Assembly (NCBI GenBank): GCA_038045705.1
Contig: JBBSXO010000006.1
Coordinates: 44,506 to 108,505 of the forward strand
Length of the DNA stretch: 64,000 nucleotides
DNA from: Nanobdellota archaeon
GTDB lineage: Archaea; Nanobdellota; Nanobdellia; Pacearchaeales; GW2011-AR1
Reading direction: 5' to 3'
Shown: piece after piece, positions 21,079 through 58,355 of the stretch
How the letters are laid out: each line of letters begins with the position of its first letter
Position numbering within the stretch: position 1 is the stretch's first letter
The notes under the pieces: generated by a model
The model's input: the letters and a program-made list of their open reading frames with translations, nothing else
Databases searched by the model: none
Told to the model about the DNA's origin: nothing
Made by a program: the position numbers and the translations under genes

Positions 21079-21079
21079 T
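21067..21079 (+). repeat. attL core: 13-bp direct repeat CCGGGACGGGCGT (3' end of tRNA-Asp)
   Basis: Exact 13-mer repeated at 50735-50747. A GC-rich 13-mer in ~30% GC DNA is unlikely to recur by chance. Confidence 0.6.
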
Positions 21080-29760: not shown

Positions 29761-29778
29761 ATTTAAAGCCTATTATCT

Positions 29779-30150
29779 TCAAGGTATTGTATAAAATCCT
29801 CTACCGTCTACATCTAAATCGCCAAAGGGATCAGGGTGGAAAGCTATTGTTCTTGTTTCCATTTCTGTGTTAATATCATCTCTTATTGCTACATCTAAGT
29901 CTGTAATTCGATTGACCGTTCCTCTAAATTGTCTTTCACACTTTCCCGCTTCTAAAATTGCTATGTAATTAGTATACCCATCTTCTGAATATATTTTATA
30001 AGCATAATCAACATCAATTATTCCATTAGCTTGGCATCTTGGGTTTATAGTTATATTAGCGCTTGGTTGTGCTTGAACTGCAATTATTGTCACTCCTATA
30101 AATAATATCATTCCTAAAAAATATAGTATTTGATTTTTCATAATGGACAA
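29779..30150 (-). CDS. small secreted protein
   Basis: Signal peptide MSIMKNQILYFLGMILFIGVTIIAVQA. Length 123 aa. Confidence 0.3.
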   Translation of the reverse strand: MSIMKNQILYFLGMILFIGVTIIAVQAQPSANITINPRCQANGIIDVDYAYKIYSEDGYTNYIAILEAGKCERQFRGTVNRITDLDVAIRDDINTEMETRTIAFHPDPFGDLDVDGRGFYTIP

Positions 30151-34800: not shown

Positions 34801-34857
34801 AGAAAACAAGATCACTGTAAGAATAATAAAAATAAAGACGACATAATTTATCTTCAT
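31807..34857 (-). CDS. secreted PHP-domain phosphoesterase fused to a ~700-aa Cys-rich extracellular region
   Basis: Signal peptide. PHP motifs SLHQHTGFS, LGFSDHS, GEELS and ILNHPHP in the first ~200 aa. Over 60 Cys in CxxC/CxC arrays thereafter. Length 1016 aa. Confidence 0.45.
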   Translation of the reverse strand: MKINYVVFIFIILTVILFSEDGLAINFYKGSLHQHTGFSTVGGYDSNPFTNSDNCLPIGLEGHLIGYEVQELADEAANLGLDYLGFSDHSYCIDAGEFGTVRNDCVNARNSTFTCLMGEELSTQDISGDNENLFSCYTGSTGPGEAHIGGYGLSSLISQTPSAVHCPSGPSAQSGVNSIASQGGISILNHPHPSSSTTTFLDFESIYSVSGYDGVEIWNGNFTSDSLDDDADNFNAWYNLLQQDERVYAYGGTDEHGHVSDINYNYVPASTITHSNIQSALAAGTNVVSNNGYVIIEAKKNSQSTWTQMGGEVSANTNDILNMRITYDLDHSCTLRVYKSTIGSNLELTHYGPVNISGSSSPITLPNLALANPGDTYFRAECIGSGGTYRTYTNPIWVSVLSSSCQCSNWVSGSCGGGGCGEGQRLETRTCTPSGCNAQTRCVNDASCSGAGGGNSTCTEPGYEYCTTNSFGNCDVTVAINVYSNVNNISWGQVVDNSDPYTIGNYKVGWKAVDAQDVYYDINPSSCGSGGCGGNPLSGNQGVINVTNAPATAHFEEIIGYDDTSSYWCTTGFDPFNPSYTNNPYIYVLNCYSNSDCASNQFCNKSGSWNTWSCVSDLSNGQSCTSSAQCQSNFCDNDGVGLSDDGWCFSPYNGYFDSQETNYCEFSTTLGISSCDERQTGDDLNLCSGISYYEEECSSVCGYQDVTSVFECGETGCSCAQPLCDGLSSGSNITTCASALTYFADKCSSSASGEDRGDNVCRSSSFATGCTADSQCNGVVAGTGSCSLNCTYNTPPTTPTSLLCNGAACSTNTFYYSMNLNCSGSTDAENDNITYNINAFYDLAFHSIGNHTASQTLNWNFNSIAPEYPVIFSCRSIDVNGSNTYSAYYSPSNSVTLNPMRNDTNKFLIQDSTASNVAWLGDWGNIALKGTCSISSNCVAPNGSLVIGNSTDSSTAYIDTTGNMCLESGTCSDMISSCNPIRDSFLIQNLTGYNMSYIDFNGNLCLTGGLYENVIF

Positions 34858-35303
34858 TTCCTATCCTCATAAATCTTCCAAATTAAGGCTAGCGCCGAAA
34901 AAATTAATAAAGAAATCCCTACAAAATAAGCCATCCTGAGATTAGAACTTGCTTCAAGCAAAAATCTCGAAAAATTGGAATTCAAAGCAACTCCTATGGG
35001 CCAAAATGAAGTAGCAATTACACTGATTAAAATAAGTTCTTTACTTTCATCTTTAGCTCTTTTTAATAAAATTAAGAGTATCCATGGAAGAATCAACCAA
35101 AATATCAAATTTACTATTAATACTTCTGGAATAATAATTAAAGATTCACCACCTCTAGTTCCAAAAACTGTTTGAGAAATTAGAGTTGCAATTAATCCTG
35201 GAATGAATGTCACTAAAATCACTAAATCGCTCTTTGAAAATAAAAATCCTGCTAAAATAAAAATAAATGCACAGCACAAAACCAGATAAATTTTATTCTT
35301 CAT
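34854..35303 (-). CDS. membrane protein, hypothetical
   Basis: 149 aa, four TM helices, co-transcribed with the surface proteins. Confidence 0.3.
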   Translation of the reverse strand: MKNKIYLVLCCAFIFILAGFLFSKSDLVILVTFIPGLIATLISQTVFGTRGGESLIIIPEVLIVNLIFWLILPWILLILLKRAKDESKELILISVIATSFWPIGVALNSNFSRFLLEASSNLRMAYFVGISLLIFSALALIWKIYEDRK

Positions 35304-35306
35304 TTA

Positions 35307-36977
35307 TCAAATAACCTCCATTATGTGTTCTGTAGAGATTTGACGTTCCTCTCCCAAGTAGTTGTAATCTAAAGTTATATTTATCCACTCATCATTTCCA
35401 ACAGTGAAATCCCCATAGAATATTTCCTCATATCTTATCCTTATTTTTTCCACATAAACGTTTAGGGTAGGTTCAGTAAGATTAAACTCAAATCCTTGTT
35501 CGATAGATAAATCTTTATTGAAGTAGAGACTTCCGTTTGAAATGTAGATGCTTAAATTTCCTAGCTCAATAACATCATTAAGGTAAATGCTATGGCTAAC
35601 AACAATAGTTCTATTATGATCAACATGATTAACAGTGTAACTGGATATATCATGCTCTAAGGACACATTAATACCAACTGCAATTGTTCTATTTTCACTC
35701 CAAGTTCCTTGAGAACTATTGTCGTAAGCCAAGAAAGAGTATGTATAGTTTCCTTCCGAGATGTTAGCTAAAACAAATGTCGTAAAATTAGTTGCTCCAG
35801 TTAAAATTACAGTTTCTTCTAATTGCCAACTACCTCCAGTATTAGAATATAAAGAGATATTGGTCAAAACATAATCATCTGTAACATTCGGAGTCAAAAA
35901 TAAATAACCATCCCCATCTAAATAGTTATCTTCTGGAGAGAGAGTAATATATCTTGGAGCAGTGTCTCCTTGTTCTGTAACCGTTAATAGGATCTCACTA
36001 TCACCTACACCATTATCAGAGTCATATACATAGAATGTAATATATTCTGAACCGTACCAGTTAGTTTCCGAAGTTAAGGTTACTATTCCAGAGGTTTCAT
36101 CTACTTCTGCAGATATGTGGTCTGAAGAACTAGCATTATAAGTTAGCTCATCGCTGTCAGAATCTGAAGAGTACTCACTAAGATTAACTACTTTCAATGA
36201 ATCTTCGCCCCAAGTTTGTGAAGACAGTTCAGAAAATACAGGAAGAGGATTTTGAACTGCTATAGTTCTATTTACCGTAGACCATGCAGAGTTAGGAGAA
36301 GAAGCAAAATCATAGCAGATAATATTCCATTTAAATGTAAGATCATTAGGGACATTATTTAACTCAAAAGTCTGTGAAATATTTTTAATAACAAAATAAT
36401 TAGTCTGATTCGCAGCCCAAGTTCCACTCATATTGGTATAAAGACTACAATTTACTATCCACCCATCGTCATCAACACTATAATTTAATTGTAATGTTCT
36501 ATCAGTTGAATTAAATCCATTGGACGGACCTTCAATGTTCACCACAGGGGGAGTGGTGTCATTGAACACGTCAAAAACTCTTGCTTCAGACTGGCTAATA
36601 TTTCCATCCGACCAAGAACAATTAACACTCCAACTATATTCATCATTTTGAAGATTATTTAGATAAAAATAATTTGTTGAGGAACTACTAATATTAATTT
36701 CAGTTTGATTTATTATACCATCAAAAATAAAGCTACAATTATCCATAGTATAAGAAGAATTAGTAATTATATAAGAAAATGCTACATTTCCATCAAATTC
36801 TACAGATCCATTTTCAGGAGTTTGAAGTTCAACAATATAACCATAACCACCACTAGTACCTTGAGCACTAACAAAAAAGAAAAACAAAAAGACTAATACT
36901 AATAAAATAGAAAAAGTGGAAAAAATCATAAAATATTGATTAATTATATTGAACCTTTTAAGATTTCCTTTCACCAT
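35307..36977 (-). CDS. secreted N/S/T-rich surface protein (probable Ig/fibronectin-like repeats)
   Basis: N-terminal TM/signal FSTFSILLVLVFLFFFFVSAQG. 556 aa with many NxS/T sequons. Confidence 0.35.
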   Translation of the reverse strand: MVKGNLKRFNIINQYFMIFSTFSILLVLVFLFFFFVSAQGTSGGYGYIVELQTPENGSVEFDGNVAFSYIITNSSYTMDNCSFIFDGIINQTEINISSSSTNYFYLNNLQNDEYSWSVNCSWSDGNISQSEARVFDVFNDTTPPVVNIEGPSNGFNSTDRTLQLNYSVDDDGWIVNCSLYTNMSGTWAANQTNYFVIKNISQTFELNNVPNDLTFKWNIICYDFASSPNSAWSTVNRTIAVQNPLPVFSELSSQTWGEDSLKVVNLSEYSSDSDSDELTYNASSSDHISAEVDETSGIVTLTSETNWYGSEYITFYVYDSDNGVGDSEILLTVTEQGDTAPRYITLSPEDNYLDGDGYLFLTPNVTDDYVLTNISLYSNTGGSWQLEETVILTGATNFTTFVLANISEGNYTYSFLAYDNSSQGTWSENRTIAVGINVSLEHDISSYTVNHVDHNRTIVVSHSIYLNDVIELGNLSIYISNGSLYFNKDLSIEQGFEFNLTEPTLNVYVEKIRIRYEEIFYGDFTVGNDEWINITLDYNYLGEERQISTEHIMEVI

Positions 36978-37472
36978 TTATTTTATGATTGAGAATTCTG
37001 CCGAAGAAATAGAATCTGCATCAGCAGTTATACCCTTCAACTCAACTGTAATATCCTCCTTACCATCTTTATCTAGATCTATCTCATAAGTATTTCCTTC
37101 ATCTAAAATGAAAGAAAGAGCTATTTGCTCATCGTCAACATAATTGTTTAGACCATCTTCTAAGTCTAAAATTATGAAAGTTGGACCTTCTTTTCTCACT
37201 CCTTTATACTGAAGCCCATACCAATTACCATTAAATTCAAACTTTAACCTTCCAGGCTTCATATTGAAAGAATTGTCCTGTCCCAAAATAATCTCTGAAA
37301 CTGGAACGGCTGCACCACCAAACCCGGAATTAGATAATTCAGGCATAACAGCAACAATATCTAGTTCTTCACCTGAAGAGTTTACTGAATTCAGAAAGAT
37401 AAATATAACCAAGAAAAAGAGAAGACTGAAAAAAAGTACAAATGACTTAATTTTCATAAAACTCACTAGCAA
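36978..37472 (-). CDS. small secreted protein
   Basis: Signal peptide, 164 aa, first gene of the minus-strand surface-protein cluster. Confidence 0.3.
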   Translation of the reverse strand: MLVSFMKIKSFVLFFSLLFFLVIFIFLNSVNSSGEELDIVAVMPELSNSGFGGAAVPVSEIILGQDNSFNMKPGRLKFEFNGNWYGLQYKGVRKEGPTFIILDLEDGLNNYVDDEQIALSFILDEGNTYEIDLDKDGKEDITVELKGITADADSISSAEFSIIK

Positions 37473-37561
37473 AACCGCTTTATATATTTACCTAGAAATT
37501 TTTCTCTTTAGAATTAGAGCATTCTATGAATATATAAAAGATGCCGAATTATTCTAATTAG

Positions 37562-38485
37562 ATGAACTTAAGTAAATATCTCTTAATGCTATTTTTAGTA
37601 AGCATTATTTCAATTCTAGTTCTTACATTAAAGCAATCACCCATCATTCAAGAGTATGCAGATTCACCATTTTGTGGAAATAATATATGCGAAAGAAATG
37701 AAGAAATATACTGCCTTGATTGTAACTTAAGTTGTAAATCTGAATTATGTAACTCAAAAATTAACGTCTTATGTGATAATTGCAGTGTTGAAAGCGAGTT
37801 AATTCAGGAATTGTTTGATCATCAAATTATAATATATAATTGCCTTTCAAATTATTATGGTTATAACCCTTCTAGATTGGTTTACCACACTGTAAAGAAT
37901 GCTGATGAAACAGGAGAAGTATGTAATGGGGATGATGGGTGTTATGTTGGAGGAGGAAATTTTGGAGAGAAAGAAGGAATAATCCAAGAACAGATACCTG
38001 GATTGGTGAATTTTGGGAACTTCAGGGTAAAAAATAAAGAAGATGTAGGTTTTGAAGTTCATGAATTATCTCACGCATTTACTTATTATGGACTTGGAAG
38101 AATACCTTCATGGTTAAACGAAGGAATTGCCATTTACTCAGAAAGCAAATTAAGTTGCGATAGTGAGATTAGAGAAGATGAAATTATAGAAATCTACGAG
38201 TTATATAATAATCAAACTATTACAATACCAGCTAATGAATATGAAAGAACAAAAAATAGCCCTCATGTAGTTGGATCAAGATATTTAGGTTATCTTGAGG
38301 ATGTATATGGATGTGATAAAGAGTGTGTTTCTAAAATAATTCACTCATTATATTCATATAGACAAAACCATACTAAGTATGACTTAAGAAAGCAAGTAAT
38401 AACTAATAAAATAATAAAGGAAAAGTCAGAAGAAGTAATTGGTAGAGATTTAACTAAAATATTTGACATATTGGAAATAAATTGA
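37562..38485 (+). CDS. secreted zinc metalloprotease (HExxH; Peptidase_MA_2-like) with N-terminal Cys-rich module
   Basis: Signal/anchor. Cys-rich CGNNICERNEEIYCLDCNLSCKSELCNS...CDNCS. Then VHELSHAFTYYG...WLNEGIAIY (HExxH plus a downstream NEG/Glu). Confidence 0.5.
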   Translation: MNLSKYLLMLFLVSIISILVLTLKQSPIIQEYADSPFCGNNICERNEEIYCLDCNLSCKSELCNSKINVLCDNCSVESELIQELFDHQIIIYNCLSNYYGYNPSRLVYHTVKNADETGEVCNGDDGCYVGGGNFGEKEGIIQEQIPGLVNFGNFRVKNKEDVGFEVHELSHAFTYYGLGRIPSWLNEGIAIYSESKLSCDSEIREDEIIEIYELYNNQTITIPANEYERTKNSPHVVGSRYLGYLEDVYGCDKECVSKIIHSLYSYRQNHTKYDLRKQVITNKIIKEKSEEVIGRDLTKIFDILEIN

Positions 38486-38535
38486 TGATTTTGTTTTTTA
38501 GCAAGGTTTATAACTCAAAATAAGCGACCCTTATT

Positions 38536-38982
38536 ATGAAAATTAAAGTATTATTCTATATCTCTTTATTAGTGATAGCTTCTTTATTTTTGATCCAGAA
38601 TAGCTCAGCTAGCCCAGTGCCTAACGCTATTATGCCAGATTTAGTATTTACAAATATAACTTATAAGATCTCTTTTATTAATACAACTAATTCTGTAACC
38701 TATTGGGATGTAAGAGTTATAGGGACATTAACAAATAACGGGTCAATCTTCGCTACTTCTTCTACTAGCTCGAGTGGATTATCAAGAGTTGGAAGCACTT
38801 CTGGCTACGGGCAAGCTATTCCAACGCCTTCAATAATGCCTAGGGTAAGCACAAAAGTTAGATGGAATTTTGTAGGATATACTGGGCAATATTCTATGTG
38901 GTTTCATGCAGATGTTTTTAACAATGTAACTGAATTTGATGAAACTAATAATTTTATTGGCACAATTATAACTCTCCCTTAA
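38536..38982 (+). CDS. small secreted protein
   Basis: Signal peptide MKIKVLFYISLLVIASLFLIQNSSA. Length 148 aa. Confidence 0.3.
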   Translation: MKIKVLFYISLLVIASLFLIQNSSASPVPNAIMPDLVFTNITYKISFINTTNSVTYWDVRVIGTLTNNGSIFATSSTSSSGLSRVGSTSGYGQAIPTPSIMPRVSTKVRWNFVGYTGQYSMWFHADVFNNVTEFDETNNFIGTIITLP

Positions 38983-39505
38983 TAAATTTTGATGAATTCA
39001 TCATATTTTGTGCAGCTTTCAAGAAAGTTAAATCTCTATCTCTAATAAATTTACCTTCAACTTTAGTAGGCTTATCATTTTCAAAAGTTTCAATAGCTTC
39101 ATCTAAAGTCATCCAAACTAACTCAAACTCTTCAATCATTTCTTTCTCAGTAAATTGAGGTTTTCCTTTAGATAAAATCTTTCCAATATAACAATAAGAT
39201 ATCTGTTTCATATCAAAACCCCATTTGAAATTTTTATCAGAACGATATTCTACAATCTTACCAACTTCAGATTTTATCTCCATTTTAGCTCCGACTTCCT
39301 CAAGAGCCTCTCTTAGCAAAGCATTCTCTTTTGTTTCCCCTTCATCTATGCCTCCGCCTGGAAGCTTATGAAAATTTCCGCTTGCAACAAACAATATTGG
39401 AACTAAACCATTTTCATCAAAAAGAACAGCTCTTGAAGCCTCACGAAGTTTAATATTAGAATTCTCTTTAAAATCAGGATCTTTAAACTCTTTAAGAAGT
39501 CTCAT
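38966..39505 (-). CDS. NUDIX hydrolase
   Basis: Canonical Nudix box GGGIDEGETKENALLREALEEVGA (Gx5Ex7REUxEExGU). Confidence 0.7.
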   Translation of the reverse strand: MRLLKEFKDPDFKENSNIKLREASRAVLFDENGLVPILFVASGNFHKLPGGGIDEGETKENALLREALEEVGAKMEIKSEVGKIVEYRSDKNFKWGFDMKQISYCYIGKILSKGKPQFTEKEMIEEFELVWMTLDEAIETFENDKPTKVEGKFIRDRDLTFLKAAQNMMNSSKFIKGEL

Positions 39506-40305
39506 TTCAAATTTCCATATTTAGATAACAAATTACCTAGCTGTTCTTTTCTTTGACTAAGCCCAGCATATTTTTTCTCCTTAAAATAATGGCAATAATA
39601 AATATCCTGTAATAACCAGTTTAAGAAGATAAAATCTTGGTATTTTTCATCCCAAAATTGAGTTGAAGATATAGAAGAGTATCCTTTCCTAAACTGTTTT
39701 TGTTCTTTAGGTTTCTTAAACCACTTAAAGAATGCCTTACCAATAGCAAAAAGCTTTGGTCTTTCAGCAATACTATCTATATCTACAAGATAAACATTAC
39801 CATTTCTTAATCTAAGATTGCTACCATGAAGATCGTTTGCATCTAAAGTAAAAATGGGTTTTGTCTTCTTCAATAAAAACTGATATATTTTTTCTACTCT
39901 TTCAATTTCTTCTTTAGGCAAGAGTTTAGCCTTTCTTACTTCATTCAAATTCTTCTCAAATCTTCGCGTAACGCTGCCATTAACTTTTATTTTATTGATA
40001 TAAGCACAAATTTTACCAACCCGATAAATTACTGATTTTGACTCTTTCTTAATAAGGTCTCTTCCTTCAATATATTCATAAAGAACATCTTTTCCAACTC
40101 TTCCTAAAAATTTAGGTAAAAAGCCGTACTTTTCAAGTTTATGAGATATTTCTTCGAAATATTTAGCTCTTTTAAGAGTCTTATATTTTCTTAAAACATA
40201 TTTTCTTCCTTCGTAAGTAAGTAAATGAACTTCACCGCTCCAACCCTCTCCACCATCATCAGAAGTTAAAACAGATATTTTACCATTTTTTAATATATTT
40301 TTCAC
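39502..40305 (-). CDS. APH/choline-kinase-like (protein-kinase-like fold) small-molecule kinase
   Basis: Lys strand YVLRKYK, hinge YEYIEG, catalytic loop DLHGSNLRL (DLHxGN) and Mg site YLVDIDS. Confidence 0.5.
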   Translation of the reverse strand: MKNILKNGKISVLTSDDGGEGWSGEVHLLTYEGRKYVLRKYKTLKRAKYFEEISHKLEKYGFLPKFLGRVGKDVLYEYIEGRDLIKKESKSVIYRVGKICAYINKIKVNGSVTRRFEKNLNEVRKAKLLPKEEIERVEKIYQFLLKKTKPIFTLDANDLHGSNLRLRNGNVYLVDIDSIAERPKLFAIGKAFFKWFKKPKEQKQFRKGYSSISSTQFWDEKYQDFIFLNWLLQDIYYCHYFKEKKYAGLSQRKEQLGNLLSKYGNLK

Positions 40306-40898
40306 TTTAAATCTCCTAAGTGTTCATTATAATGTAATTTACTAATAAATAACTTTTTGTTCTTATCTAACTCTACAACAGTCACAGAAGCGTTAGGGCT
40401 ACCTTTCTCAATAATCTCAGAATTATCTTTATTTTTAACCAACAGCATTTTTAACAAAGAAACTTTTGTTCCACCATGAGTCATAATTAAAACTGTTTTG
40501 TCTTTCCATTTTTTACTATTCTCTGTTAAAAATGTCTCTGCCCTTTTATCAACATCTTCAGGAGTTTCTCCGCCAGGAGGAGCTTTGTTAGGATTATTCT
40601 TCCCCCATTCCTTTAACTCACCAGTAGGTTTACCTTCAAAAATACCCTTACCTCTTTCTCTCAAAAGATGAGAGTAATTAGCTTCCATTTTAATTATCTT
40701 TAATAATGGAGCAATAGATTCTCTACATCTTCCCAAATCTGAACAATAAACTAAATCTATTTTTTCATTTTTCAAATAATTAGCTAATTTTTCGACTTGC
40801 TTTAATCCAATCTCACTAAGTTTACCTTGATTTTGACCTTGAGTTATTCCTTCTTTATTTTCAACGGTTTCACCATGTCTTACAATAATTAATCTCAT
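40302..40898 (-). CDS. histidine phosphatase (phosphoglycerate-mutase-like) family protein
   Basis: N-terminal MRLIIVRHGETVEN (RHGE motif) and a later MTHGG. Confidence 0.7.
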   Translation of the reverse strand: MRLIIVRHGETVENKEGITQGQNQGKLSEIGLKQVEKLANYLKNEKIDLVYCSDLGRCRESIAPLLKIIKMEANYSHLLRERGKGIFEGKPTGELKEWGKNNPNKAPPGGETPEDVDKRAETFLTENSKKWKDKTVLIMTHGGTKVSLLKMLLVKNKDNSEIIEKGSPNASVTVVELDKNKKLFISKLHYNEHLGDLK

Positions 40899-41824
40899 TT
40901 TTCAGCCTCTAACCTTCTCTCTTTTTCCACGTTTAACATGGCTATATGGTTACCTATTGGAGTTAATGTTCTAAGCATCATAAGAAAATAATGGATTATT
41001 ATAGGATCTTCTTTTTTAATAAGCTCAAGGTTACTTTCAAAGTTTCCTTTTCTTGACTCAAAAAATTTCTGTACATTGTCCTTTTGATCATTAACTACCG
41101 CATTGTAAAGTTCTTGATAATGATCTCTTACTTCCTTAAGGAGTCTTAATTCAGACTCACTTAATTTTGGCTTCTTTTGAGCATTTAGATGATCATAAGA
41201 ATAATTGATAAGAAGAGAGATTTCAATAATTGCATTAAAAAAGTCGTAAGCATACTTTGAGTTTACTGAATCAAATATTTCTCTTTTGTTTATCAATCTC
41301 TTTGATAAATTACACAGCCTGCATAAAGTAGTGTGGAGTTCTTTTATCTCATAACTCATTTCAAAATTGCCTTTTTCACCTTCTTCTAACAAATAGTCTA
41401 ACTTTGAAAGCAAAATCCACATTATCTTTCTTACAATTTGGCCATACTCTGAATCATCTGTATGTACCATACACTTAAGTCTACATACATTATTATCACT
41501 CTTTACTAATTCAAGACCAGTTAATAATCTAAGATCTTCTCTGATTTGAGGCAATTGTTTAGGTGAAGTATATTTTATATTGATTTCATCAAATCCAGAA
41601 GTGTATAGGTGGCGGATAATTCTTCCAATATACCATTCACCTCCGTTTTCTAAAGGAATTGTTACTGGCTCAAAAGATTTGTCTTGTATTGATATAACAA
41701 GCTTTCCACGTGAAGGTTCTACATTAACTAATTGTCCTTGTTTGAGATTATTATTTTTTACCCAGTTAGATGGAAGCGAGACAGTGAGAGTACCTTCTCC
41801 GTGCTTTACAACTTTTCTCTTCAT
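40895..41824 (-). CDS. AbrB/SpoVT-N-terminal domain regulator with PhoU-like helical C-terminal region
   Basis: N-terminal swapped-hairpin KVVKHGEGTLTVSLPSNWVKNNNLKQGQLVNVE. The remainder is helical and PhoU-like. Divergent from the radical SAM gene. Confidence 0.4.
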   Translation of the reverse strand: MKRKVVKHGEGTLTVSLPSNWVKNNNLKQGQLVNVEPSRGKLVISIQDKSFEPVTIPLENGGEWYIGRIIRHLYTSGFDEINIKYTSPKQLPQIREDLRLLTGLELVKSDNNVCRLKCMVHTDDSEYGQIVRKIMWILLSKLDYLLEEGEKGNFEMSYEIKELHTTLCRLCNLSKRLINKREIFDSVNSKYAYDFFNAIIEISLLINYSYDHLNAQKKPKLSESELRLLKEVRDHYQELYNAVVNDQKDNVQKFFESRKGNFESNLELIKKEDPIIIHYFLMMLRTLTPIGNHIAMLNVEKERRLEAEK

Positions 41825-41849
41825 AGTTCGAGAAATATAAGTTCTTTAT

Positions 41850-41905
41850 TTAAATTTATGGTTATGTACACATATTTATACAATGTGTGTTTATACACAC
41901 AATAA
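41850..41905. promoter_or_regulatory. divergent promoter region with three TTTATACA repeats and TGTACACA palindrome
   Basis: atgtacacatatttatacaatgtgtgtttatacacacaataagtatata lies between the divergently transcribed regulator (40895-41824) and radical SAM gene (41936). Candidate BRE/TATA plus operator sites. Confidence 0.3.
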
Positions 41906-41935
41906 GTATATAATAAAACCTCAGATATATGAGTT

Positions 41936-42919
41936 ATGACTCAAACAATAGAGAATGTATTGGGAAGATTCCCTTTACGCGTTTCTATTACAGATAATTG
42001 TAATCTATCTTGTGTTTTCTGTTCAAATGAAGGTTTAGGAGCAGAACGTAACCAAGTTTCAATGCAACCAGAAGATTTTCGATATTTAGCAACCACATTA
42101 AGAGCTCATGGACTAAATCATATTTCTCTTTCGGGCGGAGACCCAACTGCTCATCCTGCTGCACGAGAAATGGTTGAAATTGCTAATGAATCAGAAATTC
42201 CTCAAAGATTCTACCATACCAATGGAATACTTCTTGGAAGAGATGGACTAGCAGATGCTCTTGAACAATTTAGTAAAATTGGAGTTTCACTACATACAAC
42301 TGATTCCGCAAGATATAGCCAAATAACTGGGGGGAGACCAGCACATTATGATAAAGTAATGGCTGGATTAAAATCTCTAGGGGAAAAAGGATTGGGACAA
42401 AAAGTAGAGGTAAAACACGTTACTGTAAAAGGAATGAATGATGACTCTGAATCTTTGAGTGGTACTCTAGATTTATGCGCACAGTACGGTTTCAAATTTA
42501 AATTTCTAAATTTTGAAGCAATTCATGCTGGACAGGTTGGTTTAGTGCAGAATGCAGAAGTAATTAGACAAAGAGTTAGAGATTTAGGAGCGGTTCATCT
42601 TCCTGACCAAGGAGGAGTTTTCAGAGGACAGGATTCTTACTTACCAATTCAATGGTTTAGTTACAAAGGAACTAAAGGCGTTGTTATAGATGTTGGTTGC
42701 GGAAGACCTGAGGTTTGCAGAAGCTGTCATGATTCTAATGAAATATATGTAACTCCCAAGCTCAGCATAAAGCCTTGCAAAATGAGCAGTCATGAAATTT
42801 CTCTTAAAGAAGCAATTGATCGTAGAGATGAAGGAGCACTTATAAGTTCAATAATGGAATCAAGAGCATTCTTACGCACACAACCAGGATTAGGTAAAAC
42901 CTATTGGGAGCAAAGATGA
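41936..42919 (+). CDS. radical SAM enzyme, MoaA-like (GTP 3',8-cyclase family)
   Basis: LRVSITDNCNLSCVFC (CxxxCxxC) aligns with MoaA LRISVTDRCNLRCxYC. Also LSGGDPT, TNG and a C-terminal CRSC...PC second-cluster-like motif. Visibly GC-richer than surrounding DNA. Confidence 0.65.
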   Translation: MTQTIENVLGRFPLRVSITDNCNLSCVFCSNEGLGAERNQVSMQPEDFRYLATTLRAHGLNHISLSGGDPTAHPAAREMVEIANESEIPQRFYHTNGILLGRDGLADALEQFSKIGVSLHTTDSARYSQITGGRPAHYDKVMAGLKSLGEKGLGQKVEVKHVTVKGMNDDSESLSGTLDLCAQYGFKFKFLNFEAIHAGQVGLVQNAEVIRQRVRDLGAVHLPDQGGVFRGQDSYLPIQWFSYKGTKGVVIDVGCGRPEVCRSCHDSNEIYVTPKLSIKPCKMSSHEISLKEAIDRRDEGALISSIMESRAFLRTQPGLGKTYWEQR

Positions 42920-43593
42920 ATAAAAAATTAGTAATGTTATATACAAAGTTCCCTGAAATTGGAAAATCAAAAACAAGAATAGCAAGAGAAAGCTCAGAAT
43001 TATTCGCGTATATTGTAAGTCTTTGCACACTTAAGGATACTATAAACAAAGTGAGCAATTCAAAAAGTTATGATTTTATTGCAGTAGTTAATAGTAAAGA
43101 AGAGTCTCAATTGTTCAGAGAGAAACTTGGAATTAATGTTTATGTTTTAAATGAATCTTTATTACAAAGCGACCAAAGTCAAAGATTTTCATTTCTATTT
43201 TCCAATTTTAAGAAAAGCTATGAAAAAATAATTTTAATCCCAAGTGATGTTCCCTCAATCGCCGAATCTAGCCTAATTAACGCATTTAATATTTTGGAAA
43301 ATAATGATTATGTATTTGGCCCAGAATACAATGGAGGAGTATACCTTATCGGAATGAATAAAAATCCAGACAATATTTTTGATAGAGTTAGATGGAGTAC
43401 TGAAAATTCTTTTAAAGATTTAGTAAATAATAGTAAAAACAAAAGTTATCTGTTAAAATTAAAGGGTGATCTCAATAAATTACAAGACTTAAATTTATTT
43501 AAAGAAGACATAGAAAAAAGATCCCCATTACTCTATGAGTTTCTTGCTAATAATTTCTACAAAGGGGTCAAAATTAATTATGCTTACAATTGA
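42904..43593 (+). CDS. DUF2064/TIGR04282 family (MobA/CofC-like nucleotidyltransferase fold)
   Basis: N-terminal LYTKFPEIGKSKTRIA (cf. AKxPxxGxVKTRL) and GPEYNGGVYLIGM (cf. GPAxDGGYYLLG). Confidence 0.5.
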   Translation: MGAKMNKKLVMLYTKFPEIGKSKTRIARESSELFAYIVSLCTLKDTINKVSNSKSYDFIAVVNSKEESQLFREKLGINVYVLNESLLQSDQSQRFSFLFSNFKKSYEKIILIPSDVPSIAESSLINAFNILENNDYVFGPEYNGGVYLIGMNKNPDNIFDRVRWSTENSFKDLVNNSKNKSYLLKLKGDLNKLQDLNLFKEDIEKRSPLLYEFLANNFYKGVKINYAYN

Positions 43594-44209
43594 ACTATTT
43601 GGTATTTCAAGAACAGGTAAAACTTCTACTTTGAGAAACCTTGCTTCACATTTCGAAGCAAATGGAGAAAGATGCGAAATTATTGGAAGAGCCCCAATAG
43701 ATTTCAAAAGTTGTAGAGATCTTGAAGACTTTCATCAAAAAATGCTATTATACTTAGAACAAAGAATTCCAGAGGCTCAAGAAAGAAAACCACATTATCT
43801 GTTGATGGACAGAGGACCTTATGATAGGCAAGTTATGCTAGAAGCAGACCATCAAGACGGAAAAGTAGGAGATCAAGTTTATAGAGATGCAACCCAAAGA
43901 CTGCTTAGTTTAGAACCAAAAATTGATATTCCTTTAATTTTTCTTGTAGATCCTACAACTTCTCTAGCTAGAATTGGTTCACAAAGAGACGAAGGCCTAG
44001 ACTATTCTCATATGTGTGTTGGGCTTAACACGAGAGACAATGTTGCTGAATTAGGTAGATTATTTGATCAGTATTCTGCTTTACAAAGGGCAAAGAAAGG
44101 CATTATAAGCGTTTATACTGGCGGAAGTGCAACAGATACATTACAATCAGCCTTAAGGGTAATAGCATCGACAAAAGTTAAAAACAATGGAGAACATACA
44201 CAATCATGA
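43583..44209 (+). CDS. P-loop deoxynucleoside/nucleotide kinase-like protein
   Basis: Walker A GISRTGKTS and LLMDRGPYDR (DR motif of the dNK/TMPK fold). The start is probably the Met at MLTIELFG rather than the ORF-track start at 43535. Confidence 0.5.
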   Translation, partial: LTIELFGISRTGKTSTLRNLASHFEANGERCEIIGRAPIDFKSCRDLEDFHQKMLLYLEQRIPEAQERKPHYLLMDRGPYDRQVMLEADHQDGKVGDQVYRDATQRLLSLEPKIDIPLIFLVDPTTSLARIGSQRDEGLDYSHMCVGLNTRDNVAELGRLFDQYSALQRAKKGIISVYTGGSATDTLQSALRVIASTKVKNNGEHTQS

Positions 44210-44718
44210 AAGAAATAGAGATTAAACTAAAATACAGCGATGAAAATGCGCTAAGAAAGAAAATAAAAAGTATTGGAAAACACACAGAGACCTATGAGAT
44301 TGTTGATTGTTATTATGGAAGAGATGGCGAAAACATGAAGACTGCTGAAAAATTGCTAAGGATAAGAACAAAGAAAGGAGTATCTGAGCTTACATTTAAA
44401 GGTAAAAAAGAGACAGAAGGAAATGTCTGGGAAAGAGTTGAGATAAATGTTCCAATTGGGGATTCTGAGAAGATGGAACTTGTTCTAAAAAACCTTGGAC
44501 TAAAAAGAATTCTAAAAAATCGAACAATTAGAGAATACTGGAACATTAATGGAACAGAATTAGGAATTATGAAAATTAAAGAACCAGCAGAAGTTGATTT
44601 TGTAGAGATCGAAGGTAAAACTAAAGAAGATGTTGAAAGAGTTACTGGCTTGTTTAAAGGAATTTTAGAGCCTATTGGTAAAGACCATTTCAAAAAATTA
44701 GATGAGGCTAACAAATAA
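44206..44718 (+). CDS. CYTH-domain (triphosphate tunnel metalloenzyme) protein
   Basis: N-terminal EIEIKLK (ExExK), RIRTKK, ERVEINV and EIEGKTKE glutamate pairs characteristic of CYTH/CyaB-ThTPase. Confidence 0.65.
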   Translation: MKEIEIKLKYSDENALRKKIKSIGKHTETYEIVDCYYGRDGENMKTAEKLLRIRTKKGVSELTFKGKKETEGNVWERVEINVPIGDSEKMELVLKNLGLKRILKNRTIREYWNINGTELGIMKIKEPAEVDFVEIEGKTKEDVERVTGLFKGILEPIGKDHFKKLDEANK

Positions 44719-45290
44719 TGTTGCCAGAGATATTTATCATAAGGCATCCAGAAACAATCAATAATAAAGAAAAGATCATTGAAGATCCTATGGGAGGAGA
44801 TTTATCTGAATATGGTAAATCTCAGATACCTGATGCAGTTAAGAGTTTATTATCTTTAGAAATTTCTAAAGTATACTCTAGCGATTCTGCACGATGTAAA
44901 GAACTTGCTGAAGCATTTTCTAATGAATCTGAGATAGATATCCATTATGATCCTATGCTTCGCGAAGTCAATAGTGGAGATTGGATCGGCATGAAAAAAA
45001 TAGAAGTTAAAAAGCTTATAGCACAGAATAAAAGACCAAGAAATGGAGAAAATTTAGATCAATTAATGCAAAGAGCTAAAGTTGTCCTTAACAAATTAAT
45101 TCAAGAAAAAGGTAGAATATTATTAATCACTCATGGTTGTCTAAGTAAAATGATTATAGGTGCAACAATGAATATGGGTGCTTATGAAGCAGATGAAAAA
45201 GTAAGCATAAAAAATTGTCAGATAATAAAATTGGATTTCAAAAATATAGGGTCAAAACAGATTCCACTTATTCAAAACAGAAAAAATTAG
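44718..45290 (+). CDS. histidine phosphatase family protein (second copy in cluster)
   Basis: N-terminal IFIIRHPETINN (RHxE) and a late LITHG. Overlaps the CYTH stop codon. Confidence 0.55.
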   Translation: MLPEIFIIRHPETINNKEKIIEDPMGGDLSEYGKSQIPDAVKSLLSLEISKVYSSDSARCKELAEAFSNESEIDIHYDPMLREVNSGDWIGMKKIEVKKLIAQNKRPRNGENLDQLMQRAKVVLNKLIQEKGRILLITHGCLSKMIIGATMNMGAYEADEKVSIKNCQIIKLDFKNIGSKQIPLIQNRKN

Positions 45291-45313
45291 AGGTATAGTG
45301 ATTGGATTAATTA

Positions 45314-45628
45314 ATGAGGAACACACTACAAAAAGAGAAAAGTAAAGAAAATCTTTTATCTGAGATGCTCTCATATCTCGAACCAAAGGAAACTATCCAA
45401 ATTAATGGGAAACTTTCTTATAAGGAAAGTTTAGGTTCTTGGAATGTAATTCAATTGCAAAAAGAGATTATTGATTTATTTCCTCAACTTAGAGAGAAAA
45501 GAAGTAATTTTGGTTATACTATGTTCTATAATCGCTCGTTTAAGGAATCGAGAAAAATAATTGATGAGCTAGAAAAAAACGGGGTTGTTCCTATTTTTCT
45601 GTTGTTAGGTAAGGTAAAAGAAAGATAG
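45314..45628 (+). CDS. conserved small protein, copy 1 (paralog at 61145-61459)
   Basis: 104 aa, about 80% identical to the inverted copy 16 kb away (LSYLEPKETI.I.GKLSYKE.LGSWNVIQLQKEIID.FPQLREKR..FGYTMFYNRS.KES.KI..ELEK.GVVPIFLLLGK). Confidence 0.4.
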   Translation: MRNTLQKEKSKENLLSEMLSYLEPKETIQINGKLSYKESLGSWNVIQLQKEIIDLFPQLREKRSNFGYTMFYNRSFKESRKIIDELEKNGVVPIFLLLGKVKER

Positions 45629-45675: not shown

Positions 45676-46644
45676 ATGAAAAAAGAACCAATCTCAAAGA
45701 GACAGCATTATGTTAATCAAGCTTACTTAAAAAATTTTAGAATAGAAAGTACGGAAGATAGTTTATTTATGTATGATAAAGAGAAAATGTCTATTGCTAG
45801 GGTAAAAACTGCAAATGTAGCCAGCGAGAATTTCTTTTATGATAGGACAGAAGAGCGCATTATAGAGAAGACTTTAGCAGAATTTGAAGGTAAATGTAAT
45901 GTTATCTTAAAAAAGGTCATCGAAAAGGAAGATTTAGACCAATTAATTAGTGAAGAAAAGGAGCTTTTAGCGACGTTTTTAGCAGTTCAATTTTTAAGAT
46001 CAAAAGAATTAAGAATTGATTATAAACAGATTGCAGAGGCTGTTTTAGAAAGGGTTGCTGAGAAAATAGTTCCAGATTTTAAGAAAGGAGATATTAAAGT
46101 CGTAGAAGATTCTTTATCTGGACTTCATGTACATACGATTTTTAAAGAATCTGGACATTTTGCAAAATTATTTCTTGATAAATCATGGAAATTATGTATC
46201 AATAATTCCTCTATTCCTTTTTGGACTTCCGATAATCCTTGTGCAATACATAACGATCTTGAGCCAGAACCATTCAAAAGCAATCTAGGAATTGAATGTA
46301 AGGGCTTTCAGTTGCATTTTCCATTATCTTCAAGGTTACTCTTAATAATTATTGACAAAAACATTAAGGTAATTGATTTAAGTAATGCAAAAGAAATAAA
46401 ATATCCAAAAAAGAGAAGTTTTTACAGGAATATAGATAAGAAACTAGACGTTCCTTTATTTACTTTAATGCCTCCAAAGGAATTTGTTGGAGGGGACAGA
46501 GTTACTTTTGAGAATAATTTGCAGGTAATATCTGCGACAAGATTTATCTTTTCTTCAAATGAAGATTTTTCTCTTGCTGACAAATATTTAAAAGAACAAC
46601 CGATACATAGAAATGCAAATAGAGGAAGATTTAAAGTAATGTAA
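45676..46644 (+). CDS. DUF4238 family protein
   Basis: N-terminal KRQHYVNQAYLKNF matches the DUF4238 signature (H-x-h-P/N-Q-x-Y-L-K-x-F). Confidence 0.45.
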   Translation: MKKEPISKRQHYVNQAYLKNFRIESTEDSLFMYDKEKMSIARVKTANVASENFFYDRTEERIIEKTLAEFEGKCNVILKKVIEKEDLDQLISEEKELLATFLAVQFLRSKELRIDYKQIAEAVLERVAEKIVPDFKKGDIKVVEDSLSGLHVHTIFKESGHFAKLFLDKSWKLCINNSSIPFWTSDNPCAIHNDLEPEPFKSNLGIECKGFQLHFPLSSRLLLIIIDKNIKVIDLSNAKEIKYPKKRSFYRNIDKKLDVPLFTLMPPKEFVGGDRVTFENNLQVISATRFIFSSNEDFSLADKYLKEQPIHRNANRGRFKVM

Positions 46645-46700
46645 TTGACTATCAATTTAATATCTAAAATTTTAAAATCTCCTAATGATTTCGGAGAATT

Positions 46701-47270
46701 ATGAAAAAAGAATGCGTTGAACATTACAATAAGATTAAGATAAGTAATATCAGCATACTTAGTTCTAACAAAAAGTTAAGCGACTATGAGAGAAATTTAA
46801 AACTAGAATATGCCCGAGAAGAGCAATACGAGTCTGACTCATTTAATCTTAAACTTGCAGATAGTAGATGTAACTTGGGTGGTTGGCGTCTCTGGTTTAT
46901 GTGTCAAGGGTGCGAAAAGAAAGTTGGAACCCTATTCTACAAATATGACCCTCAAAATCTAAGATGTAGAAACTGTTTAAATCTTACTTATGAGGCAAGA
47001 CAGAATAAAAGAAAAGAGGCATTTCATCTTATTGGTAATGCAATAAGGCTTAAACAAAAATATGATTTAATAGGAGAAAGGCTGTTAAGGAAAGGAATAC
47101 ATGCAAAGACTCGCCTCAGACTTTGGTCAGAAAAAACAATATTAGGGGAAGAACTAATAGAAGTTCTAGCCTTACAAAAAGAAGTCTTATCCAATAATTC
47201 TGTTAAATATGGAAAAAGAATGCAAGAACTAATAGAAAATAAAAAATTAGATTTTACAACAAGACCATAA
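46701..47270 (+). CDS. zinc-ribbon protein, hypothetical
   Basis: CQGCEKKVGTLFYKYDPQNLRCRNC in a 189-aa basic protein. Confidence 0.3.
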   Translation: MKKECVEHYNKIKISNISILSSNKKLSDYERNLKLEYAREEQYESDSFNLKLADSRCNLGGWRLWFMCQGCEKKVGTLFYKYDPQNLRCRNCLNLTYEARQNKRKEAFHLIGNAIRLKQKYDLIGERLLRKGIHAKTRLRLWSEKTILGEELIEVLALQKEVLSNNSVKYGKRMQELIENKKLDFTTRP

Positions 47271-47499
47271 TTACAATTTTCTATTACCTTCTTTATCTAA
47301 AATTATTCTTTCCTTTTACATATTTTATAAGAACTAAGAAAATTCCTAAAATAACAGACACTACTCCTGAAGAAGAGTTGCTTAGTGGAAATGAAGGATA
47401 AAGAGCCTTTGCAATTAATAGAGCCATGTAGATTACCACTGCTGAAACAAAGAAGACTCTAAAAGCTCCTATAATATCCCCTACAACATTATCAGACCA

Positions 47500-48096
47500 G
47501 TGTTTAGCCATAGAAATTATGATTATCCTAAATATTTAAATTCTTTCAACCTTTATAAAAATATGGGAAATAGAGAGTATCAAGTATGGGATAAAAAAGG
47601 AGAAGGAGAAGAGTCTTGGATGCAATTTAGAAGATTTGCAGTATCTTATAGAAAGGCTTTTCAAACATGTATTAAAAAAGAAGTTGAAGATGCATCAAAC
47701 GGCTTAATATTTGATGATGAAGATATTTTTCCATCTTTGTTATTATTCAATCATTATGTAGAACTCTCTTTGAAAGCCTTACTTGAAAAATCTGGAAGCA
47801 ACTTTAAAAGTCATATTTTAAAAGATTTATTAGAAGAGGTTGAAAAGAACTATCCTGACTTTAAACTCAGCAACTTACCAAGAAAATTAATAACTGATAT
47901 TGATTTAATTAACCCAGCTAGACCTTTATTAGACCACGAAGGTTTTAGGTATCCTTTAGATAATAAAAGAAATAAGATCTGGGTTACTGAAAGAAATAAT
48001 CATGCTTTTATTGTTCTTGGTGGAGTTCATACTTCTTCAATAAATCTAATAAATGAGATAGAAGCTTACTTTAAAGATAAGATAATAAAAGCTTAG
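47500..48096 (+). CDS. hypothetical protein
   Basis: 198-aa ORF, no motif. Confidence 0.25.
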   Translation: MFSHRNYDYPKYLNSFNLYKNMGNREYQVWDKKGEGEESWMQFRRFAVSYRKAFQTCIKKEVEDASNGLIFDDEDIFPSLLLFNHYVELSLKALLEKSGSNFKSHILKDLLEEVEKNYPDFKLSNLPRKLITDIDLINPARPLLDHEGFRYPLDNKRNKIWVTERNNHAFIVLGGVHTSSINLINEIEAYFKDKIIKA

Positions 48097-50734: not shown

Positions 50735-50747
50735 CCGGGACGGGCGT
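50735..50747 (+). repeat. attR core: 13-bp direct repeat CCGGGACGGGCGT
   Basis: Identical to tRNA-Asp positions 21067-21079. An imperfect inverted copy ACGCCCTGCCCGGGC lies at 50823-50837. Confidence 0.55.
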
Positions 50748-52082: not shown

Positions 52083-52316
52083 TTGTTTCTAATTAGATTG
52101 AAAAAATTAATAGTTTTTACTTTAATTTCTGCTTTGCTTTTTTTATTGCTTTATCTAGATGTTTTTCTGCTTTTGTAATAGCCTTTTTAGCTTTCTCAAG
52201 TTTTTTAATGTGCATTCTTATTTTAGCAATCTCTTTTTTATCCATTGAATTAGATGGTTTGTTTGTTTAAATAGCTTAACCCTAAAGAATATACCAACCA
52301 ACTTCGATGATTTGAA

Positions 52317-58271: not shown

Positions 58272-58355
58272 GCTAATAATCTGATACCTAACTATTTAAA
58301 TTTTACGATAAATCGGTAGACCGATTTTCTAGATATAATATGAGTTATACCTCAA

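Follow-up and report, generated by a model that had tools for sequence, protein, structure and literature searches.

Introduction

Gene cassettes for the modification of nucleotides by radical S-adenosylmethionine (rSAM) enzymes are known, and characterised members of the clade to which the enzyme studied here belongs act on nucleotides, MoaA on GTP, viperin on CTP or UTP, and AbmM and BlsE on nucleoside substrates. Here we analyse a cassette of nucleotide-processing genes arranged around a MoaA-like rSAM enzyme, located in a 64,000-nucleotide stretch of a Nanobdellota archaeon genome (assembly GCA_038045705.1, contig JBBSXO010000006.1, positions 44,506 to 108,505 of the forward strand). This whole stretch is called the window, and coordinates refer to it unless another locus (L004 and the like) is named. 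Tentatively, as a possibility that falls short of a probability, we favour the joint reading that the core of the cassette (41936-45290), its Nudix gene and its regulator gene form one dedicated, horizontally mobile operon, and that this operon would encode a pathway of viperin-like kind whose product, a modified nucleotide, is directed at transcription.

With MoaA, the enzyme of the window shares the overall fold, the N-terminal CX3CX2C motif, a C-terminal auxiliary-cluster domain, the equivalent of residue R17 and several lysines on the phosphate side, but sequence identity is 19-28%, there are four and not three invariant C-terminal cysteines, and genes for MoaC, MoaD or MoaE are missing nearby. 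Viperins have been linked to nucleoside monophosphate (NMP) kinases (bioRxiv 10.1101/2023.09.13.557418). The cassette resembles the systems of viperin and of prokaryotic viperins (pVip) in its rSAM neighbourhood, in the link to a putative NMP kinase of the thymidylate/CMPK2 type in most loci and in its accessory, mobile distribution, but differs in having an auxiliary cluster, a DUF2064 protein, a CYTH protein, a Nudix hydrolase, a phosphatase and a link to a Gre-like protein. Clusters that pair the rSAM enzyme ArsS with a TIGR04282 transferase, of the arsenosugar type, also include a phosphoesterase according to the TIGRFAMs description. The pairing of an rSAM enzyme with a DUF2064/TIGR04282 transferase is common to both, whereas the cassette has no arsenic or selenium gene and no GT2 transferase, and its DUF2064 protein scores below the TIGR04282 cutoff.

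The F420 pathway offers another parallel, two paralogous rSAM enzymes (in relatives of the cassette) and a CofC-like nucleotidyltransferase, but the enzymes of the cassette are MoaA-like and not CofG/H-like, CofD and CofE are lacking, and the CofC equivalog model gives 26.8 bits against a cutoff of 105. To our knowledge, archaea have no Gre factors. Related cassettes nevertheless encode, even in archaea, a two-domain protein that shares with Gre/DksA secondary-channel factors a coiled coil, a GreA_GreB domain and an acidic tip, but is highly divergent and has an ETWHD(N/E) tip. Finally, the element that carries the cassette has an integrase gene beside tRNA-Asp, repeats 13 nt of the tRNA 3' end and combines VirB4/TraC/TrbC-like genes with variable cargo that includes restriction-modification systems, all as in known integrative elements at tRNA genes; it differs in having a DPANN archaeal host and no identified relaxase. 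For the DUF2064::Nudix, CYTH and Gre-like parts of the cassette there is no described counterpart.

A MoaA-fold radical SAM enzyme distinct from MoaA

The rSAM enzyme is encoded at 41936-42919 on the plus strand (Pfam Radical_SAM, PF04055, 78 bits). The cysteines of its CX3CX2C motif (C22-x3-C26-x2-C29) are invariant in the family, as are four C-terminal cysteines (C255-x5-C261-x2-C264-x16-C281), which may mean that the auxiliary cluster is fully ligated. Scored against the MoaA equivalog models, the enzyme reached 106.1 bits against a cutoff of 284 (TIGR02666), 99.7 against 325 (TIGR02668) and 92.2 against 231 (NF001199). The Mob_synth_C domain (PF06463) was detected neither in the enzyme of the window nor in 25 family members, whereas nine of nine true MoaA matches contained it. 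These 25 members, with 31-100% identity and at least 277 bits, were retrieved from 5.8 billion protein clusters, and a gap of about 200 bits separated them from true MoaA proteins, which scored 81 bits at most; a profile search of 1.84 billion cluster representatives returned 27 proteins at E ≤ 1e-30. When the profile was compared with PDB sequences, MoaA from Staphylococcus aureus was the best match (65.6 bits) and viperins came next at about 46 bits. Similarly, the predicted structure (predicted local distance difference test, pLDDT, 88.7) had MoaA as its best Foldseek match (template modelling score, TM, 0.73), followed by SuiB, viperin-like enzymes, BlsE, DesII and AbmM.

Alignment with MoaA indicated that the equivalent of R17 (R15), K160 and K189, all on the triphosphate side, are kept and that R71 and N124 are lost. 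Instead of the CNRxR motif of MoaA, in which R266 and R268 (S. aureus numbering) bind guanine, the family has an invariant SNEI(Y/F); R17, R266 and R268 are the GTP-binding arginines mutated in PDB entry 2FB2. Also absent are the auxiliary motif CX2CX13C and the C-terminal Gly-Gly of MoaA, the enzyme of the window ending in ...YWEQR. Models of other rSAM families fitted poorly as well, with 37.5 bits against a cutoff of 180 for viperin (NF038283/TIGR04278) and 37.6 bits against 300 for ArsS, and the pVip models of PADLOC matched at E 4e-13 (47 bits) over residues 17-184 only. None of the partners for molybdenum cofactor (Moco) synthesis (MoaC, MoaD, MoaE, MogA, MoeA) was encoded within about 8-10 kb in any locus with Pfam gene calls or among the scanned open reading frames (ORFs) of the window, and about 40 loci showed no Moco genes nearby.

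An earlier interpretation made without database searches, here called the sequence-only reading, had considered classical Moco synthesis unlikely, and the missed MoaA cutoffs, the lack of Mob_synth_C and the lack of nearby Moco genes agree with it, as does the gap of about 200 bits. Classical MoaA was rejected as an identification on account of the sub-cutoff scores, the missing Mob_synth_C domain and the replaced guanine-binding arginines. Judged by its sequence and predicted fold, the protein is a MoaA-fold, two-cluster enzyme of a distinct small family. The nearest relatives outside this family (P0206, about 166 bits) are encoded beside a ResIII/DEAD helicase (L063, 8001-10484), in surroundings unrelated to those of the cassette, and this locus may represent a separate system.

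The cassette is conserved in DPANN archaea and CPR bacteria

The ten ORFs listed in the sequence-only reading were all recovered at the same positions, and eight domain calls were supported above threshold by hidden Markov models, among them those for the Nudix hydrolase, both histidine phosphatases, the rSAM enzyme, the DUF2064 protein and the CYTH protein (NUDIX, His_Phos_1 twice, Radical_SAM, DUF2064 and CYTH). The genes form two divergent arms, each a tightly coupled operon with junctions overlapping by 1-14 nt, except for a gap of 23 nt before the last plus-strand gene, which encodes a 104-aa protein. Two translation starts were revised by homologue alignment, that of the DUF2064 gene from 42904 to 42916, where it overlaps the rSAM stop codon, and that of the P-loop kinase gene to 43580.

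On the plus strand, the rSAM gene is followed by the gene for a DUF2064 protein with a MobA/CofC-like nucleotidyltransferase fold (42916-43593). This protein passes the Pfam thresholds of DUF2064 (58 bits versus 25.8) and of CofC (25.8 versus 22), and reaches 97.4 bits against a cutoff of 134 for TIGR04282. Next comes a P-loop kinase resembling NMP, thymidylate and deoxynucleoside kinases (43580-44209, plus strand). All of its Pfam matches were sub-threshold (AAA_28, 21 bits) and a PDB search with the single sequence gave no match, but thymidylate and deoxynucleoside kinases have motifs similar to its conserved IEfFGxSRAGKTtQ and DRGxxDR. The CYTH protein, a triphosphate-tunnel metalloenzyme (TTM) encoded at 44206-44718 on the same strand (PF01928, 60.8 bits), has the ExExK motif as EIEIK in residues 3-7 and scores 56.1 bits against a cutoff of 57.95 for the cyaB model TIGR00318. 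Its nearest solved structure is SaTTM, a triphosphatase without cyclase activity (PMC8233210). The core ends with a histidine phosphatase (44718-45290, plus strand; His_Phos_1, 104 bits) in which the RHG motif has the variant form RHP and which is 64-68% identical to its counterparts in L004 and L007 and 40% identical to that in L008. The Nudix hydrolase (38966-39505, minus strand; NUDIX, PF00293, 56.8 bits) is encoded by the last gene of the opposite arm, contains a complete Nudix box (GX5EX7REUXEEXGU; GGGIDEGETKENALLREALEEVGA) and shares 66-73% identity with its counterparts in L004 and L007; the gene counts as a conserved accessory of the cassette.

Neighbourhoods were obtained from gene calls on homologue contigs and from a scan of one genome per GTDB species, and loci were scored against the window proteins. 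The rSAM family was present in 26 species genomes, all from DPANN archaea (Woese-, Pace- and Nanoarchaeota) or from the Candidate Phyla Radiation (CPR/Patescibacteria); a few third-party annotation records with family members carry the label Gammaproteobacteria, which we doubt. Across about 26 species, the gene order was kept at protein identities of 38-96%. In every locus that reached far enough a DUF2064 gene followed the rSAM gene, and the kinase and CYTH genes usually came next. In type A, found in DPANN archaea and in the window, a regulator with AbrB and PhoU-like parts stands divergent to the rSAM gene, which is followed by genes for the DUF2064 protein, the P-loop kinase, CYTH and, optionally, a histidine phosphatase; the operon ends with a gene for the 104-aa protein or for a Gre-like protein, and a Nudix, Metallophos or other phosphoesterase gene lies beside the regulator gene. 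Type B, found in CPR bacteria and some DPANN archaea, consists of genes for a Gre-like protein, a paralogous rSAM enzyme of about 400 aa, the rSAM enzyme, a DUF2064::Nudix fusion, a kinase and CYTH; in some loci they are joined by genes for a PHP phosphoesterase and for a protein of 134 aa. The fusions, 396-407 aa long, occur in L012-L017, which have the architecture with two rSAM enzymes, and they tie the Nudix gene to the system.

The sequence-only reading had proposed one functional cluster with nucleotide-centred chemistry, and the co-location of rSAM, DUF2064, kinase and CYTH genes in relatives, with their order kept, bears out the cluster; as to the chemistry, its enzymes are all of kinds that handle nucleotides or phosphoanhydrides. 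Chance clustering is excluded by the DUF2064::Nudix fusion together with the strict gene order, and the notion of a fortuitous cluster was rejected. With this cassette, archaea and bacteria have clearly exchanged a set of genes.

The proteins at the kinase position are heterogeneous. The P-loop kinase of the window type is conserved in 17 archaeal-type loci and a different P-loop kinase is found in bacterial-type loci, one of them weakly matching thymidylate (dTMP) kinase models; in a comparison of the archaeal and bacterial kinase profiles only the P-loop matched. The slot is occupied in three CPR loci (L016, 10277-11044; L037; L042) by proteins of 255-270 aa which have no P-loop and no Pfam match, and which share a conserved C-terminal VVIDVDWPDQY. 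Another small protein, of 134-148 aa, lies beside the cassette both in a CPR locus (L012, 11143-11547) and in a Pacearchaeote (L007, 5002-5448), the two being related at phmmer E 1.7e-28; its DGLHR motif looks ParB/sulfiredoxin-like.

No member of the rSAM family was present in IMG/VR, and GenBank phage and PLSDB plasmid records gave only matches at the level of MoaA, with identities of 30% or less. Among known defence families, PADLOC reported only weak pVip and PDC matches, no PADLOC or NCBIfam model covers the gene combination of the cassette, and a literature search on this combination found nothing. In CPR genomes the cassette is flanked mostly by housekeeping genes; archaeal flanks often contain restriction-modification or methylase genes.

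A Gre-like factor is linked to related cassettes

The most informative partner was missed by the sequence-only reading. At least 16 cassette loci, five of them archaeal and together more than half of the related cassettes, encode a Gre-like protein of 155-275 aa with a coiled-coil N-terminus and a C-terminal GreA_GreB domain that scores above the Pfam threshold. Against the equivalog model TIGR01462 these proteins reach 29-59 bits (cutoff 139), and in place of the canonical GDLSENAEY their tip reads (S/G)x(D/E)xWHD(N/E), with acidic residues at the tip. The archaeal Gre-like proteins also served as queries against JGI metagenomes, and of the seven closest matches six lay within a cassette. Gre factors enter the active site of RNA polymerase through the secondary channel and cleave backtracked RNA (PMC3132773). 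The presence of this partner suggests that RNA polymerase is the target.

At least eight further loci, termed sister cassettes here, join an rSAM enzyme of the MoaA/viperin-like kind (300-410 aa) to CYTH and a Gre-like factor, and several of them also hold a P-loop kinase and a class I methyltransferase. The kinase of L076 is a thymidylate kinase by Pfam, above threshold (50 bits), and a sister-cassette methyltransferase weakly matched mRNA guanine-N7 methyltransferase (E 0.004). L065 (1405-7486, on a contig of low GC content, 0.32), one of the six cassettes met with the closest Gre-like matches, keeps the scaffold of AbrB regulator, CYTH-like protein and Gre-like protein but has a viperin-like rSAM enzyme (NF038283, 85.5 bits); its operon also encodes a BpsA-like aminopropyltransferase, a methyltransferase and a 213-aa protein. 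What recurs as a unit is thus an rSAM enzyme with CYTH, an NMP kinase and a Gre-like factor.

A possible nucleotide pathway and its alternatives

The pathway that we tentatively favour would run as follows, with substrate, order of steps, target and biological role as we infer them. The NMP-type kinase would feed a nucleotide toward the triphosphate, and the MoaA-fold rSAM enzyme would alter a probably phosphorylated nucleotide by 5'-deoxyadenosyl-radical chemistry, relatives using two paralogous rSAM enzymes. The DUF2064 enzyme, CYTH, the Nudix hydrolase and the phosphatase may convert, conjugate or destroy the product, so that its pool is kept in check, and an AbrB-PhoU-like repressor would govern both arms through a shared operator. 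The product might act at the active site or secondary channel of RNA polymerase, for instance by terminating chains or by miscoding, like the nucleotides of viperin systems; the Gre-like factor would then rescue the owner's own polymerase and the hydrolases would limit self-harm. RNA polymerase is proposed as the target because most related cassettes carry a GreA-like factor and sister cassettes swap in viperin-like rSAM enzymes. The pathway as a whole draws on the conservation of the cluster, the place of the rSAM enzyme near MoaA and viperin, its retained triphosphate-side residues, the recurrent Gre-like factor, the documented link of viperins to NMP kinases and the mobile, defence-rich context. 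A role in conflict, antiviral or between organisms, fits because the cassette is cargo of an element, beside genes for DUF4238 and HEPN-domain proteins and restriction-modification systems. Among the three products that the sequence-only reading had suggested (an antiviral nucleotide analogue, a signalling nucleotide, or a hypermodification of DNA or RNA), the antiviral analogue is favoured, though short of proof.

Several points weigh against this interpretation. No Gre-like ORF was found anywhere in the 64-kb window, in which the gene for the 104-aa protein occupies the Gre position, and more distant Gre-like proteins of the ETWHDNAP type are mostly solitary in metagenomes. We know of no partner for bacterial-type Gre factors in archaeal RNA polymerase. 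The CPR flanks are mostly housekeeping and not defence genes, and no cassette protein matches a known defence family beyond the weak pVip similarity. The rSAM enzyme itself scores far below the viperin cutoff and has an auxiliary-cluster domain, unlike viperin. As viperin systems need no DUF2064, CYTH, Nudix or phosphatase proteins, the product may be more elaborate or of another kind.

It is unlikely that the cassette instead serves the biosynthesis of a cofactor or small metabolite, with a logic like that of F420 or of molybdopterin dinucleotides, as part of the ordinary physiology of ultra-small symbionts. One or two rSAM enzymes would build the head group, the kinase would phosphorylate the acceptor, the DUF2064 enzyme would activate it as a nucleoside diphosphate derivative, and Nudix, CYTH and phosphatases would trim intermediates. 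The CofC match of the DUF2064 protein and its sub-cutoff resemblance to TIGR04282 would suit this scheme, as would the paired rSAM paralogues of relatives, which recall CofG and CofH, the housekeeping flanks in CPR genomes and the PhoU-like sensor domain of the regulator. However, no partner of the CofD, CofE, MoaC, MoaD or MoaE type was present in any locus examined, and the family is very rare (27 representatives) and its occurrence patchy, an unusual pattern for a cofactor pathway. The recurrent Gre-like partner would have no role in it, and the DPANN cassettes lie on mobile elements beside restriction-modification genes.

Production of a second messenger or alarmone is distinctly unlikely. 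Here the rSAM enzyme and the kinase would make an unusual nucleotide, CYTH would be the cyclase or the off-switch, the Nudix hydrolase and phosphatases would degrade the signal, and the Gre-like factor would receive the signal and relay it to RNA polymerase in the manner of DksA and ppGpp. The many turnover enzymes, the linked Gre-like factor and the PhoU-like regulator can be read in this way, and the CYTH protein comes within two bits of the class IV adenylate cyclase cutoff, but SaTTM, its nearest solved relative, lacks cyclase activity. Neither sensor nor effector domains were found, the window has no Gre-like gene, and we know of no second messenger that is made by an rSAM enzyme.

Remodelling of RNA 5' ends, akin to capping and decapping, is improbable. 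CYTH would act as the RNA triphosphatase, the DUF2064 enzyme would add an NMP, perhaps modified by the rSAM enzyme, to the 5' phosphate, the Nudix hydrolase would remove the cap and the Gre-like factor would tie the process to transcribing polymerase. Whereas the TTM fold is that of the Cet1-type RNA triphosphatases (PMC8233210), the DUF2064 fold is not that of capping enzymes. The fusion of Nudix to the transferase and the class I methyltransferases, with one N7-like match, add to this scheme; against it, the methyltransferase match is generic, the L076 kinase is a thymidylate kinase and not a polynucleotide kinase, and there is no RNA-binding domain.

That the cassette hypermodifies bases in the DNA or RNA of the cell or the element itself is very improbable. 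The nucleotide-centred enzymes, the mobile element and the nearby DNA methylases would suit it, but there is no glycosylase, transglycosylase, polymerase or other nucleic-acid-binding component, and no family member occurs in virus collections. Ordinary Moco synthesis by a MoaA with unrelated neighbours is hardly credible and largely refuted, for although no named family scores higher and no structure matches better than MoaA, and some sources label homologues as cyclic pyranopterin phosphate synthase, the features given above (scores, missing Mob_synth_C and Gly-Gly, replaced arginines, different cysteine spacing and absence of Moco genes) and the strictly conserved neighbours speak against it.

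Should the favoured pathway of a polymerase-directed nucleotide be correct, viperin-type chemistry would extend to a MoaA-fold, two-cluster enzyme with multi-step tailoring, a function would be assigned to DUF2064, and a Gre-type factor would have its first role in archaea and Gre its first as a system-specific immunity or co-factor protein. A wider generalisation, which we regard as rather doubtful, is that CPR bacteria and DPANN archaea share undescribed RNA polymerase-directed systems, in which a toxic or regulatory nucleotide analogue is made by an rSAM enzyme of the MoaA/viperin clade and its helpers, a dedicated, highly divergent Gre-like factor protects or tunes the producer's polymerase, and integrative elements move the genes across domains. 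Few systems confined to DPANN archaea and CPR bacteria, organisms of mostly unknown biology, are candidates for a role in conflict or signalling, and the cassette is one of them; new nucleotide analogues would be of practical interest as antivirals and polymerase probes.

Regulator and control region

A regulator of 309 aa is encoded divergently to the rSAM gene (40895-41824, minus strand) and consists of an AbrB/SpoVT N-terminus, a small alpha/beta domain and a PhoU-like six-helix bundle. It is 86-88% identical in L004 and L007 and was found in every locus with a single rSAM gene. Pfam detected the AbrB/MazE N-terminus in ten of ten homologues and PhoU in one of the ten (E 0.08), and a PDB search with the single sequence gave no match. 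In an AlphaFold (AF2) model built from 26 homologues (pLDDT 87) the C-terminus forms a six-helix bundle, and the top 13 Foldseek matches in the PDB were all PhoU (TM up to 0.67). The AbrB/PhoU-like call of the sequence-only reading holds in this sense, the AbrB part by Pfam matches of homologues and the PhoU-like part by predicted structure alone.

The two arms are separated by a control region of 111 nt (41825-41935). In an alignment with six related loci, two TATA-like boxes proved invariant. One, TATTTAAAT, spans about 41848-41856 and the other, GTATATAA, about 41906-41913; in both cases a start codon lies about 26-27 nt away, a spacing from which we infer archaeal promoters with leaderless mRNAs. 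Between the boxes lie two copies of TTTATACA (41875-41882 and 41890-41897) and the palindromes TGTACA and TGTGTGTTTATACACACA, all of which are kept in close relatives only. The repeats had been taken for the promoter itself; they are real, but because of their location between the two TATA-like boxes they look like an operator. Conservation limited to close relatives would fit an operator of a co-evolving AbrB regulator. Rfam identified two tRNAs and no riboswitch in the window, and a scan for sigma-70 promoters and terminators was uninformative on this archaeal, AT-rich sequence.

Additional genes of the minus arm and GC content

Two genes stand between the Nudix and regulator genes on the minus strand. 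The first (39502-40305) encodes a putative APH-like or protein-kinase-like kinase of 267 aa, whose best Pfam match, APH, is weak and sub-threshold (15 bits versus a threshold of 23.2, E 0.021), and which carries a catalytic-loop-like DLHGSN followed by a VDID motif; NCBIfam gave no match and a single-sequence PDB search was empty. The second (40302-40898) encodes another histidine phosphatase (His_Phos_1, 134 bits), a paralogue of that at 44718-45290. Neither gene occurs at this position in L004, L007 or L018, the last of which has an rSAM enzyme 96% identical to that of the window, and the two genes (39502-40898), absent from these nearest relatives, are a local insertion specific to the window. 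Thus, of the proposed APH/choline-kinase-like kinase the ORF is real, but the match to APH is sub-threshold and the gene lies outside the conserved cassette.

It had also been proposed that 41936-44209 is a block of shifted GC content. Among the 67 ORFs of the window, the rSAM gene ranks second (0.377, z = 2.2) and the kinase gene is also GC-richer (0.359), but the intervening DUF2064 gene is one of the GC-poorest (0.271, z = -1.7) and interrupts the supposed block. The GC content at third codon positions (GC3) of the rSAM and kinase genes is 0.186, compared with a window mean of 0.223. Because their excess is confined to codon positions 1 and 2, it reflects amino-acid composition (Gly/Ala/Arg-rich proteins) and not foreign DNA. 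The stretch from 31 to 35 kb is as GC-rich as the cassette genes, and in the surrounding mobile element neither GC nor GC3 differs from that of the flanks. A GC shift as a sign of foreign DNA was rejected, since GC3 is not raised and the DUF2064 gene is GC-poor.

The integrated element and its other cargo

The sequence-only reading had placed the pathway on a mobile element, and this found clear support. A tRNA-Asp(GTC) gene lies at 21007-21078 on the plus strand (ARAGORN and Rfam), and the 13 nt formed by its last 12 nt and the next base (CCGGGACGGGCGT, 21067-21079) recur exactly at 50735-50747, both copies being on the plus strand. In a k-mer search this was the only recurrence in the window, with none expected in 100 shuffles; a general repeat search of the window found no long attachment (att) repeat. 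A tyrosine integrase is encoded beside the tRNA gene (21162-22334, plus strand; Phage_integrase, E 2.1e-09), followed by a module resembling a type IV secretion system (T4SS; 23827-28076, plus strand) with two small proteins, a PrgI/TraC-like protein and a VirB4/TraG-type ATPase (Pfam PrgI, P-loop_TraG, DUF87 and AAA_10). The VirB4 ATPase is 75-77% and the smaller proteins are 38-78% identical to those of modules in L007, L018 and L047. On these features, the cassette is carried in a predicted integrated element of about 29.7 kb (21067-50747).

The same element backbone is found in L047, where it bears genes for a helix-turn-helix regulator, for a restriction-modification system and for a protein homologous to that of 104 aa, with the cassette missing. 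This makes the cassette variable cargo, and the 104-aa protein the product of a junction gene in this family of elements. The 104-aa protein (45314-45628, plus strand) has no family match and is more conserved than the enzymes (90% versus 71% identity in L004). In L045-L048, on T4SS-bearing elements, its gene occurs without the cassette and always comes directly after that of a divergent regulator, with restriction-modification or methylase cargo following it, so that, contrary to the sequence-only reading, it is not a specific member of the cassette.

Other genes were noted within the element. An MT-A70 family methyltransferase gene (22605-23180) adjoins the integrase gene. Between the VirB4 gene and the cassette, about 10.9 kb (28192-38982) encode large predicted secreted or surface proteins, up to 1016 aa long and rich in N-x-S/T, two of which have homologues in L045; in L018 and L007 the distance from T4SS module to cassette is about 0.3-2 kb. 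Directly downstream of the cassette, 45676-48096 encodes a DUF4238 protein (136 bits) and a HEPN-domain protein, which may be defence cargo. In L007, from a Pacearchaeote, a SPARTA-like pair of a 511-aa Piwi-domain prokaryotic Argonaute (pAgo) and a TIR protein is encoded 3 kb downstream of the cassette (14582-16990).

Just downstream of the right att copy lies a second integrase-like ORF (50910-52082), 62% identical to the first, and after it a type I restriction-modification system (hsdM, 52317-53813; hsdS, 54666-55820; hsdR, 58356-61100) with a HEPN-domain gene (53800-54669) inserted between hsdM and hsdS. By its gene content, the region 50910-61100 looks like a second, tandem integrated element.

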